64,000 nt of DNA, from NCBI GenBank assembly GCA_023920165.1, contig CP089275.1:3968001-4032000 (forward strand). The letters run 5' to 3'. Origin of the DNA: Curvularia clavata. Its lineage: Eukaryota. Shown here one piece after another: positions 23,655 to 29,385 of this stretch (positions are counted from its first letter, which is position 1; each line of letters opens with the position of its first letter). Made by a program: the position numbers and the translations under genes. The notes under the pieces are model-generated. The model was given only the letters and a program-made list of their open reading frames with translations, was not told where the DNA came from and searched no databases.

Positions 23655-24523
23655 ATGGCGCCCCCCAAGCAGAGAAAGATTGCCATTGTCGGCAGCAGGG
23701 CAGTCGGTACGTCGCGGCGCGTCGCTTGCGCAACCTTCACATGCAAGACCCCAACAAACAGCATACTGACATGTCTCTCTGCCCAGGCAAGTCGAGTATG
23801 ACGGTGCAATTCGTCGACGGCCACTTTGTCGACAGCTACTATCCCACCATTGAGAACACTTTTAGCAAAATGATCAAATACAAGAACCAGGACTATGCCA
23901 CGGAGATTATCGATACGGCTGGACAGGTACGTGAGGTTTTCTTTTCTCCCCGCGCCGCACAGTCTCGCCCAGCTCCACACCCCACTCTTGCGATGCATCG
24001 TGCATGCTACGACTGGAACACACGCCTTGACGCCCACTTGGCCTCGACCATGTACACGAAGAACACTCTGCTGACTCGGCTATTACTTCCCAGGATGAAT
24101 ACAGTATTCTCAACTCGAAGCATTTCATTGGCATCCATGGATACATGATTGTCTACTCAGTAGCTAGTAAGCAGAGCTTTGAGATGGCACGCATCATCCG
24201 GGATAAGATTCTGAACCATCTGGTAAGATGGCCATTCCATGTCATGCTCAAGCATCCCACAAAGCTAATGCAATGCACATCAGGCTGTCGAATGGGTTCC
24301 CCTCGTTATTGTAGGCAACAAGTCTGACCTTCGCCCCGAACAACGCCAAGTCACGCCCGAAGACGGCCGCGCTCTCGCCGCCGAGTTCAAGTGCGCATGG
24401 ACCGAGGCCAGCGCACGCTACAACGAAAATGTCCAAAAGGCTTTTGAGCTCATGGTTGCTGAGGTGGAGAGATCTCAGAACCCTGGTGAGCCTGCTGGTG
24501 GCAGCAAATGTACAGTCATGTAA
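23655..24523 (+). CDS. RHB1: Rheb small GTPase, 4 exons
   Basis: KIAIVGSRAVGKSS, FVDSYYPTIENTF, DTAGQDEYS, GNKSDL, C-terminal CaaX CTVM. Confidence 0.96.
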
Positions 24524-25630: not shown

Positions 25631-27726
25631 ATGCTTGACATGTACGTTGAATCCTAGTTCCTGGCCTTTTTTCATTTGGACAAGAATGCGCCATATGTGC
25701 AAAGAGAGGGGCATGCACCCGACAAGTTGGGTTTGGAGGGGTTTGCACATTGGAAGTGACAGAAGAATGAACAATGCAAACTGGGCAACAATACGCGGGC
25801 AGACAGGATACTGGCTGACAAGATTCTTTTCTACAGAAACGATTTCATCAAGGAGCGAGGCGGCGACCCGGAAGTGCGTTTTCCTCAAAGATGCTCGCGC
25901 GACCTGTTCGGGCGGCTAATTCTCCGTATAGAAAATCCGCGAGTCCCAGAGGAAGCGAAGCGCACCGGTAGAGATTGTGGATGAGATTATTGCCGACTTC
26001 GAAGGCAAGGATAAACCTACAAACTCATATGCAAAGCCAATTCTGACTTTGATCCGCTACAGACCACCGTCGCACGCAATATGAAGCGACTCAGATCGGA
26101 TCCAAGATCAACGCCGTACAAAAGCAGATTGGGGCCAAGAAGAAGGCCAAGGAGAACGCCGACGACCTGCTCGAAGAGAAGAAGCAGCTTGAAGAGTCCA
26201 AGAAGAAGCAGGAAGCAGAGGCCCACGCAAAGCTCCAGAAGCTACATGCAAAGGCAAAGTCGATAGGAAACTACGTGTACAAGGATGTTCCAGTCAGCGA
26301 CAACGAGGACAACAATGCCATTCTAAAGACATGGGCCCCCGAGGCACGGAAAGCAGAGCCTAAGAAGGACGGTATTCCACACCACGGCGTGCTGGCTAGG
26401 TTGGATGGGTGCGTAAACCCTCACACGTTGAGAGTCTACAAGAAACATGCTGAGTTTGCGATGCAGTTACGACCCAGAGCGAGGTACCAAGATTGTTGGT
26501 CACAGAGGATACGGTAAGTACCCCCCAGAACTGGCTATGCTTCGGCATATGCGCGTCGCGCAAGTTGAGCGAATGGCCCCTTATGCTGCATGAAGTGTCA
26601 TACTAACTTATTTGCAGTATGTCAACTCCACTCTTAATATCCCCTCCACCAGACTAGCTACGCTTCCGTTCGGAAAGAAGGCAAGCGTGCCTAGGAATTG
26701 CTTACGTTGGGTAACGTCGTAGCGTTGAGTGTTTGCTAACTTGTACTCGTCTAGTGCCTGACTGGATACGGTGTCTTCCTCAACCAAGCGCTGATCAACT
26801 ACGGTCTGGAGTTTCTGGTAAGTGTTTACATCTGGCGTTTTCCGATGACCGATACTAAAAATATATTCCTAGTTCAAGAAAGGCTTCACCCCCAACCAGC
26901 CACCCTTCTTCATGCTCCGGGACCAGATGGCCAAGACAGCACAACTGTCCGACTTTGACGAGGAGCTATACAAGGTCACCGAGAGCAAGGACAAGCCAGA
27001 GACCGACAAGTACCTTATTGCCACTTCAGAACAGCCCATCTCCGCCCTGCACTCAGAGGAGTGGCTGCACAGCGACCAACTGCCGATCAAGTACGCTGGA
27101 TACTCAACAAACTTCAGGAAAGAGGCTGGATCGCACGGAAAGGATGCATGGGGTATTTTCCGGATACACCAGTTCGAAAAAGTCGAGCAGTTCCTCCTCA
27201 CACACCCAGAGAAGTCGTGGGAAGCATTTGATGAGATGCTTGCCAACTCAGAGGAGTTCTACCAGAGCCTTGGCCTCCCCTACCAAGTCGTTGCCATTGT
27301 TTCTGGAGCCCTGAACAACGCAGCCTCTATGAAGCGCGACCTCGAGGCCTGGTTCCCTGTCACTGGTGGCGGAGAGTACAAGGAGCTTGTCTCCATTTCC
27401 AACTGCACTGACTATCAGACGCGCGAGTTGGAGATTAGGCACGGCGTCAAGAAGTTGAACGCAACTCGCAAGGAGTACGTTCACGCACTCAACGGCACTC
27501 GTAAGTTTTCTTCATTGATGACTGGAAACTGGATATTGACAATACATTAGTCTGTGCTACTGAGCGAACACTTTGCTGTATCCTCGAGAACTACCAAACG
27601 CCCGAAGGTTTCGTGGTTCCTGAGGTCCTGAGGAAATACATCCCAGGCCAGCCCGAGTTCTTGCCTTTCGTCAAGGAGTGGAAGGCGCCCAAGGATGACA
27701 AGCCTCTCCCTGACCGGACCAAATAG
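25631..27726 (+). CDS. SES1: Cytosolic seryl-tRNA synthetase; introns 25642-25836, 25874-25931, 26005-26062 (GC-AG), 26409-26466, 26513-26754 (twin intron), 26818-26872, 27501-27550
   Basis: [93 protein letters not shown]. Confidence 0.96.
26513..26754 (+). other. [D1,2] spliceosomal twin intron: internal intron 26514-26617 nested in the donor of the external intron (26513 + 26618-26754)
   Basis: TAC|G|GTAAGT...TACTAAC..TTTGCAG|TATGT...GCTAAC..CTAG|TGC. Removing the internal intron creates donor GTATGT, and only this route restores GHRGY-CLTGYG. Confidence 0.85.
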
Positions 27727-28098
27727 ATCTGAGTACAGTGTCAGGTTGGAGAAGGCTGGAGAGAAAAGTGTTATGAGCGAATGAGGGCAAAGAGATGGAT
27801 TGATGGAAGCATATGGCGCTGAAAGGCTGTGGTATATGCCATGCCGTAGCATTCGTGATTAGAGAATGCTAAAGATTTCTGTCGCATAAATGCAATGCAT
27901 GAGACTCTGAATGTTTCCTGTTGATTCGCTAAATACATTCGTGGTTGTGATAGCCCTTGGAAATACTTTCGTTCATGTTCGTTACCAAACGTTTAGCCGT
28001 CGTACTCTTTGTCAAGATAATTCTCATATTGATACCAGCAATCCCCAAGGAACATCCCATCCCATCCCATCCCCACCCCACCCCAACCCACCCCGCCA

Positions 28099-29385
28099 TC
28101 AAGCTAACCTGTTCTCCCAACTCCCCAACCATCGAAACCCTTTACACGCGCCCTCCAATTCCTCTAACGCCTTATTCACTGCCCCTTCTTTCCCATCCAT
28201 TCTCCTTCCCTTCAGTTCCACAAAGAATATGTAATCCCAATTCCTAACTCCACTGGGTCTTGTATTGATCGACGTGAGATTAATCCCCTGGCGGGCAAAA
28301 ACACTCAGACAATTTGCCAGTGCACCAGGGTTGTCGTGCTCGACTGTAAATGTGACGAGGGATTTCCAGGAGCCAGTTTCACCGTCATCCCCTTTGGTAG
28401 TATCGTTGGTCCTTGCATCCTGCTGACTATATTCGTCGGACTGTTCTCGTCGCCGAATGACTAAGAATCGTGTCGCGTTTCCCAATTTGTCGTTTACACC
28501 CTCGGCTAAGACGTCAAGGCCGAAGAGCTGTGCAGCGACGATACTGGAGAGGGCTGCGGATGTTCCAGATGCATCGGTAGAAGCAATTTCAGCGGCTTTG
28601 GACGTTGAGCTGACATCATGGCGTTCAGCCGTCTTAAGGTACGTATTTAGAAAGTTTTTGCACTGGCCCCAAGCCTGCGGGTGGGAGTAGATGCGTTGGA
28701 TGTGTGATAAGTCAACATCAGATTCATTTTGTTGTTTGCCTTCTTGTGGTGTGGCGCTCGTTTTGCTCTTCCGAGCAGGATTGGAGTAGCCTAGCAGACA
28801 GTGCCGGACGGCTACGTAGGCTTCCCCGCATACGAGGATGTCCGGGTATTTGGACTGCGCGTCAGCAAAGAGGTCGAGTGTGAAGACCACGCTGCCGTTG
28901 GAGCTATTTTCAAAGGGAACGACGCCCCGATGTGCAGTACCAGATTGCACGGCAGAGAAGACGTCTTCGATTGTCACAAGGGGTGTGAGTGTGGCGGATT
29001 GAGTGTCGTCTTGTTGGGGGAAGGATGAGAGGGCAGCCTGTTGAGTAGGGTTATGTGAGATGTGTGGTTGTTTTTGGAAAAGCAGAGTGTGGCCAGAATT
29101 GATGGATACGACACGGAGAGATGAAGGAAACTAGGAAAGCAAGACGAAAGTTTGAAAGAGCATGAACACGAGTATAATGGAAGAAGAAGTATAGTCATAG
29201 ACGTCTTCAAAAATCCCTTGCCAGAAAGAAAAGAAAAGAACAACATTAATACAGTATGTCAGAGGAGATGGAAAACATGTCAATCGATATGAGAAGTCTT
29301 TAAAAAAAACGTGACTCACCTGATGTGTATAGCTGCCCTCTGGCCCTAGATAGGCGACGACTGGTTTCTTCTCCTCATCCGCCAT
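28099..29385 (-). CDS. PHA2: Prephenate dehydratase; one intron of about 280 nt (about 29038-29319)
   Basis: VAYLGPEGSYTHQ|AA, GVVPFENSSNGSV, YSHPQAWGQC, NATRFLVI, ACT domain INLTSINTRPS. Confidence 0.94.

Follow-up and report, generated by a model that had tools for sequence, protein, structure and literature searches.

Spliceosomal twin introns (stwintrons) of the [D1,2] type are defined by an external intron whose first base, G1, is followed directly by the complete donor of an internal intron (PMC5639578, PMC12403724). Uniquely occurring [D1,2] stwintrons have been described in Pezizomycotina by Flipphi, Fekete, Ag, Karaffa, Scazzocchio and co-workers, for example in Hypoxylon sp. CO27-5 (PMC9024468), and the sister stwintrons of Hypoxylaceae and Xylariaceae are propagating, similar to one another in sequence and bounded by near-terminal inverted repeats termed NTIRE-9/10 (PMC12403724, PMC8469720). 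An alternatively spliced [D1,2]/[A2,3] stwintron is described from the alternative oxidase gene of Helminthosporium solani (Ag et al. 2015, as cited in PMC5639578 and PMC5587772). Here we analyse an element of 242 nucleotides (nt) at positions 26513..26754 of a 64,000-nt stretch of DNA (the window; contig CP089275.1, assembly GCA_023920165.1, Curvularia clavata). It interrupts the gene for cytosolic seryl-tRNA synthetase (SerRS) of a C. clavata-like Pleosporaceae fungus and is, with high confidence, a genuine [D1,2] stwintron, probably excised in two steps.

The SerRS element shares with the uniquely occurring [D1,2] stwintrons a GG start, an internal U2 intron that separates G1 from U2 of the external donor, and every one of the five motifs that the published [D1,2] search model (PMC9024468) asks for. 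It stands in phase 0, a one-step product would be shifted by +1, and its length falls within the published range of 114–313 nt (PMC9024468). By contrast, the host gene and the Pleosporaceae clade differ, the donor-to-branch spacings of 82 and 112 nt both lie above the primary search model A, such that a pass of the model requires the authors' extended spacings B and C together, and AT makes up 50% of the sequence, against 117 Hypoxylon stwintrons that are described as AU-rich without exception (PMC9024468).

The element opens with two successive Gs, G26513 and the first base of a full internal donor, GTAAGT. In the internal intron this donor, 82 nt, ACTAAC, 7 nt and CAG follow one another as canonical fungal signals; the external intron has a branch site of its own, GCTAAC, 11 nt ahead of its TAG; and at the CAG|TATGT junction removal of the internal intron recreates the donor GTATGT from G and TATGT. 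On re-reading of the sequence, the motifs, coordinates, 104-nt and 138-nt lengths and reading frame given in the original prediction all proved correct.

Logan contigs of four public runs (X3, X5, X9 and X12) were aligned to positions 26050-27750. One contig each from X9, a metatranscriptome, and X12, which comes from a different study, is identical to the exons of the window and joins 26512 straight to 26755, the predicted mature junction. The 242 nt skipped have the ends GG..AG with zero ambiguity, and the junction cannot slide to a GT. The other three introns in these contigs are GT..AG (26409-26466, 26818-26872 and 27501-27550), so that RNA contigs bear out four SerRS introns in all. In the DNA contigs of X3 and X5, which span 26465-26892, the GG is intact. 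The mature mRNA is thus truly without an element that starts with GG.

The mature join TAC|TGC is in frame and reads GHRGY|CLTGY, a conserved SerRS sequence, in agreement with the in-frame product expected of two-step splicing. Translation of the alternative isoforms gave truncated products throughout. One-step excision of 26514-26754 leaves the G behind, shifts the frame by +1 and ends the open reading frame (ORF) after 220 amino acids (aa), which is the premature stop that had been foreseen; removal of the internal intron alone leads to a stop after 177 aa and full retention to one after 197 aa, and no single GT..AG excision is in frame. A canonical two-step path must begin at 26514 and finish at an AG preceding T. 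Four of the 12 AGs within the element precede T, and only that at 26617 both has an upstream branch consensus and regenerates a consensus donor: exactly one nested canonical route exists. An overlapping intron from GTATGT (26617) to the TAG, if removed first, would by the reading of the sequence leave the 5' part with no acceptor. The [A2,3] alternative, which requires a suitable start of the downstream exon (PMC5639578), is closed because exon 6 starts with T, again as predicted; the H. solani stwintron, likewise of [D1,2] type in a Pleosporales fungus, is followed by an exon that starts with G and has a second productive route, whereas the SerRS element has the [D1,2] route only.

Together, the exact GG..AG removal in RNA, the G in DNA and the single nested route uphold the structural reading of this element as a [D1,2] stwintron in SerRS. 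In the mechanism that we propose, the spliceosome would first recognise the internal intron (26514-26617, 104 nt) by intron definition and excise it, which would join G26513 to T26618 and create the donor GTATGT; the 138-nt external intron would then be removed canonically by way of GCTAAC and the TAG at 26754, to leave TAC|TGC in frame. In recursive splicing at ratchet points of long animal introns, too, a first reaction regenerates the 5' splice site used by a second. There, however, the regenerated donor follows the true upstream exon, whereas in SerRS the G of the donor is the first intronic base and a whole nested intron would be removed first.

The host gene was modelled with eight exons (25631..27726, + strand) and translates into a product of 459 aa. 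Pfam matches to exons 4 and 7 are Seryl_tRNA_N (PF02403) and the class II core tRNA-synt_2b (PF00587). Exons 4 and 7 each share 100% identity with the entry that NCBI names seryl-tRNA synthetase of Curvularia clavata (P0001), and exon 7 is 99% identical to entries from Bipolaris, Exserohilum, Pyrenophora and Decorospora; named fungal SerRS proteins share 74–100% identity with the window protein, which is similar to fungal SES1 orthologues over its full length. The exon identities and Pfam domains therefore point to a C. clavata-like origin and to cytosolic SerRS: judged by sequence identity, the source is C. clavata or a very near relative (Pleosporaceae, Dothideomycetes).

The distribution of the element was followed in metagenome contigs scanned with exon 7, which returned 80 loci, the nearest with ~80% DNA identity to the window. 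No intron occurs at this position in 72 of these 80 related loci (67 by a strict and five by a relaxed pattern, with GHRGY and the next exon contiguous), the remaining eight being truncated or too divergent to judge. Two of the intron-free loci (L001, L073) agree fully (100%) with a Pyrenophora teres model in the variable N-terminal region, and three others (L004, L005, L009) are Alternaria-like. All four models from outside the clade (Pyrenophora teres, P. tritici-repentis, Decorospora and Alternaria) are normal at the junction, as are the transcript-derived relatives P0002, P0015, P0017 and P0183, the first and last of which show the exact Y|C junction. Outside a narrow clade, there is no intron at this position.

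Within that clade the public gene models tell a different story, 12 of 13 labelled Curvularia, Bipolaris or Exserohilum being aberrant exactly at GHRGY|CLTGY. The C. clavata model runs into the intron and reads 'GK' after GHRGY; those of B. sorokiniana, B. oryzae and B. maydis likewise read GHRGY-GK, which fits GGT AAG, and that of B. victoriae reads 'GE', which fits GGT GAG. Other models drop VGHRGY or an 11-residue stretch at the junction, or take exon 5 in the +1 frame, absorbing the extra G (..EDM|CL..). The Bipolaris-like P0121, like P0122 a read-through ORF from genomic contigs of relatives in Logan, reads M-V-S in the +1 frame, against G-K-C in frame 0, and by codon logic the two readings together would fix G|GTAAGT in Bipolaris. 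P0121 continues for 37 codons to the ending ...W-T-N-L-F-F-C-S-T-stop, which would be compatible with ACTAAC ... TGTAG|TAC.., that is, with an internal intron of ~107 nt followed by T. Compared with the same (+1) frame through the internal intron of the window, 22 of its 37 residues are identical, which argues for common descent. Two recent Exserohilum turcicum models (P0184 and P0188) read GHRGY-V-R-T-L-K...; one ends at a stop (201 aa), and in P0184 another 20 residues and one more predicted intron follow. Here the valine of GHRGY-V would be encoded by G+T.., the annotators' pipeline having removed the internal intron alone and exposed a donor whose position +5 is G. The pattern G|GT...AG|T, for which the original prediction proposed a check in orthologues, may thus be read from the gene models of Bipolaris and Exserohilum; none of the metagenome loci, the nearest of which have ~80% identity, carries the element. 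On the simplest reading, these models and loci suggest that the Curvularia–Bipolaris–Exserohilum lineage gained the element once, when it had already separated from Pyrenophora and Alternaria.

Several points weigh against an interpretation as an orthologous, two-step stwintron. The predicted intermediate junction 26513|26618 was not found in the X9 and X12 contigs, which have ~5x depth and from which rare forms drop out, nor were truncated ORFs derived from the intermediate found for this species, either in the protein collection (62-200 aa) or among the short members of the SerRS cluster. X12 itself is classed as RNA from its spliced contig. The order of the two reactions, unlike in the uniquely occurring [D1,2] stwintrons, would follow here from anatomy and analogy, and orthology across Curvularia, Bipolaris and Exserohilum would follow from protein models and codon logic. 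A normal junction is seen in P0019, labelled Curvularia kusanoi, a model that is only 93% identical in exon 7 and resembles other families; either its label may be wrong or the element may be absent from it. Two further models, both from JGI, P0006 (B. maydis ATCC 48331) and P0013 (Exserohilum turcica Et28A), have two extra residues, EH and ES respectively, between GHRGY and CLTGY; the 'ES' of P0013 equals the final two residues of the 20-residue insert of P0184 and hints at a predicted 5-nt micro-exon. Finally, although a generic [D1,2] regular expression matched the 64 kb at this site only (two overlapping matches, both ending at 26754), block-shuffled windows gave a mean of 0.18 matches, and 13 of 100 shuffles had at least one. 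Because of these 13 shuffles the motif by itself is only weakly significant; it is the RNA junction with GG..AG ends that lifts the case above chance.

As to its class, the element is like the sister stwintrons of Xylariales in being of [D1,2] type and in occupying a new intron position in a narrow lineage, with the site empty in relatives. It differs from them in that no near-terminal inverted repeats of the NTIRE type are present in the stwintron, the only two inverted repeats being internal (26654-26694 and 26596-26624), in that its RNA folds no better than shuffled sequence (minimum free energy z = -0.02), and in that the 64-kb window holds no similar copy. The lack of terminal repeats, the shuffle-like fold, the AT content of 50% and the lack of a copy in the window therefore favour the 'uniquely occurring', older class, which the element looks like by its sequence features, over the propagating sister stwintrons. 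The second internal repeat includes a 9-nt inverted repeat at 26596-26604 / 26616-26624 (TGTCATACT / AGTATGTCA, 8/9 complementary) that brackets the internal branch site and AG|TATGT; such a repeat is no more than chance would produce in 242 nt, but it might still be what remains of a central symmetry that has been described in [D1,2] stwintrons.

How the element arose can be pictured in two ways. A canonical intron may have been gained first and invaded later. Alternatively, a ready-made stwintron may have been inserted into the previously intron-free, non-proto-splice site TAC|TGC before Curvularia, Bipolaris and Exserohilum diverged from one another, a proposal that we hold only tentatively and consider rather doubtful; none of the 72 informative outgroup loci has an intron there and no canonical precursor intron was seen anywhere, but the element lacks the terminal repeats that young sister stwintrons carry. 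If ready-made insertion were true, the propagation mechanism proposed for [D1,2] stwintrons in Xylariales would also have acted in Dothideomycetes, and the genomes of these cereal pathogens should carry more, possibly sister, [D1,2] stwintrons behind mis-annotated genes.

The original prediction also proposed that mis-splicing of the stwintron could tune SerRS output; on this view the element would be kept for the competition between two-step splicing and the one-step reaction (26514-26754), the +G product of which would meet a premature stop and nonsense-mediated decay (NMD). We consider this improbable. That product is indeed frameshifted with an early stop, the element seems to persist across three genera, and in Xylariales [D1,2] stwintrons are documented to be mis-spliced in one step now and then, presumably with NMD to follow; yet in those same Hypoxylaceae and Xylariaceae the one-step event with NMD is treated as an occasional error, which the authors call mis-splicing, and not as a regulatory device (PMC9024468, PMC12403724). 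Moreover, the RNA contigs contain only the mature form and no +G or retained isoform (a weak argument, as contigs drop rare forms), the RNA structure is unremarkable, and the close relatives Pyrenophora and Alternaria manage without any intron here. We infer that the stwintron is constitutive 'baggage' of a lineage-specific intron gain rather than a regulatory device.

A less likely alternative still is that a single non-canonical GG..AG reaction removes all 242 nt, with U1 bound at GTAAGT, cleavage one base upstream and the internal signals fortuitous. Such a reaction would account for the GG..AG junction observed and for the absence of the intermediate from the contigs, and the full motif does arise by chance in 13 of the 100 shuffled windows. 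However, we know of no recognised class of GG donors for the U2 spliceosome, and the internal signals are perfect (GTAAGT, TACTAAC, CAG), with the AG in question the sole one of 12 that regenerates a consensus donor. One-step splicing would not select for the AG|T and the G at +5 that are apparently kept in Exserohilum (P0184, P0188), and a reading compatible with ACTAAC...AG|T likewise appears to be kept in the Bipolaris-like P0121. Intermediates have, besides, been shown experimentally for many [D1,2] stwintrons (PMC12403724). We therefore rate the single reaction as very unlikely beside two-step removal of a [D1,2] stwintron. That G26513 is a sequencing or assembly error, a doubt raised in the original prediction itself, and the locus an ordinary 241-nt GT..AG intron with an identical-looking mature junction, is scarcely credible: the GG is kept in the DNA of both X3 and X5 and the extra G is therefore no sequencing error, the X3 contig has a 1-nt deletion in the C-run at 26521 and therefore stems from an independent strain and no copy of the assembly, and 12 of 13 independent annotations in the clade fail at this same junction, several of them reading GGT AAG in frame.

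The [D1,2] arrangement is a known though uncommon one, and no new mechanism is involved, as stwintrons, two-step excision and one-step mis-splicing have all been described; the SerRS element is notable for its host gene, its clade, the recent intron gain and the annotations that it breaks. SerRS was not found as a stwintron host in the searchable stwintron literature (one supplementary file, Flipphi et al. 2013 and Ag et al. 2015 lie outside this scope), and within that literature the impression, given in the original prediction, that it was an unreported host holds. Nor were Curvularia, Bipolaris or Exserohilum found there as stwintron hosts; one general review names both stwintrons and Cochliobolus, once each. 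A leucyl-tRNA synthetase gene of Xylaria sp. hosts a [D1,2] stwintron (Table S1 of PMC12403724), so that a host from among the aminoacyl-tRNA synthetases is in itself nothing out of the ordinary.

The stwintron explains a systematic annotation error, with insertions, deletions, frame errors or truncations at the junction in 12 of 13 models; a donor of the form G|GT...AG|T is beyond the reach of gene predictors. The clade so mis-annotated comprises major cereal pathogens and the enzyme is essential; most of the aberrant models are, in addition, fused to a Ras-family GTPase. The intron gain is datable, the site being empty in Pyrenophora-like, Alternaria-like and distant Pezizomycotina loci and occupied in one subclade of Pleosporaceae, and it lies in a highly conserved housekeeping gene; it can thus serve as a convenient marker and offers a test of how [D1,2] stwintrons originate outside Xylariales.

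Table 1. Coordinates of the twin intron and of the SerRS exons in the window.
Feature	Position	Strand	Basis or details
Whole [D1,2] stwintron, 242 nt	26513..26754	+	gone from mature RNA (X12, X9 contigs)
First base (G1) of the external intron's split donor	26513	+	sequence; same G in X3, X5 DNA contigs
Internal intron, 104 nt	26514..26617	+	donor GTAAGT 26514-26519, branch TACTAAC 26601-26607, acceptor CAG 26615-26617
Remainder of external intron, 137 nt (138 with G26513)	26618..26754	+	TATGT 26618-26622, branch GCTAAC 26735-26740, acceptor TAG 26752-26754
SerRS exon 1	25631-25641	+	homology to relatives; 11 nt, ATGCTTGACAT
SerRS exon 2	25837-25873	+	homology to relatives; 37 nt
SerRS exon 3	25932-26004	+	gene model
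SerRS exon 4	26063-26408	+	gene model, Pfam, identity to P0001
SerRS exon 5, ends GGA TAC, phase 0	26467-26512	+	sequence, RNA contigs, model
SerRS exon 6, begins TGC CTG	26755-26817	+	sequence, RNA contigs, model, relatives' proteins
SerRS exon 7	26873-27500	+	gene model, Pfam, identity to P0001
SerRS exon 8	27551-27726	+	gene model

The first exons of SerRS (25631-25873) lie outside the RNA-aligned stretch and were placed by homology to the N-terminus of relatives; the 11-nt first coding exon is followed by a 195-nt intron 1 (25642-25836). Intron 3 (26005-26062, + strand) appears to be GC..AG (AAG|GCAAGG...CTACAG|ACC), and the RNA contig of X12 has a loose 5' end, ...GACTTCGA immediately before 26061, that is compatible only with a GC..AG cut of this intron.

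Downstream, an ORF on the opposite strand (28102-29130, -) converges on the 3' end of SerRS; its product is a prephenate dehydratase that includes an ACT domain (Pfam PDT, 2e-48). On the same strand as SerRS and ~1.1 kb upstream of it lies a gene for a Ras-family small GTPase (23655-24508, +; Pfam Ras), and many public models (587-649 aa; Curvularia, Bipolaris, Exserohilum, Alternaria and Decorospora) fuse this GTPase to SerRS, skipping the small first SerRS exons.

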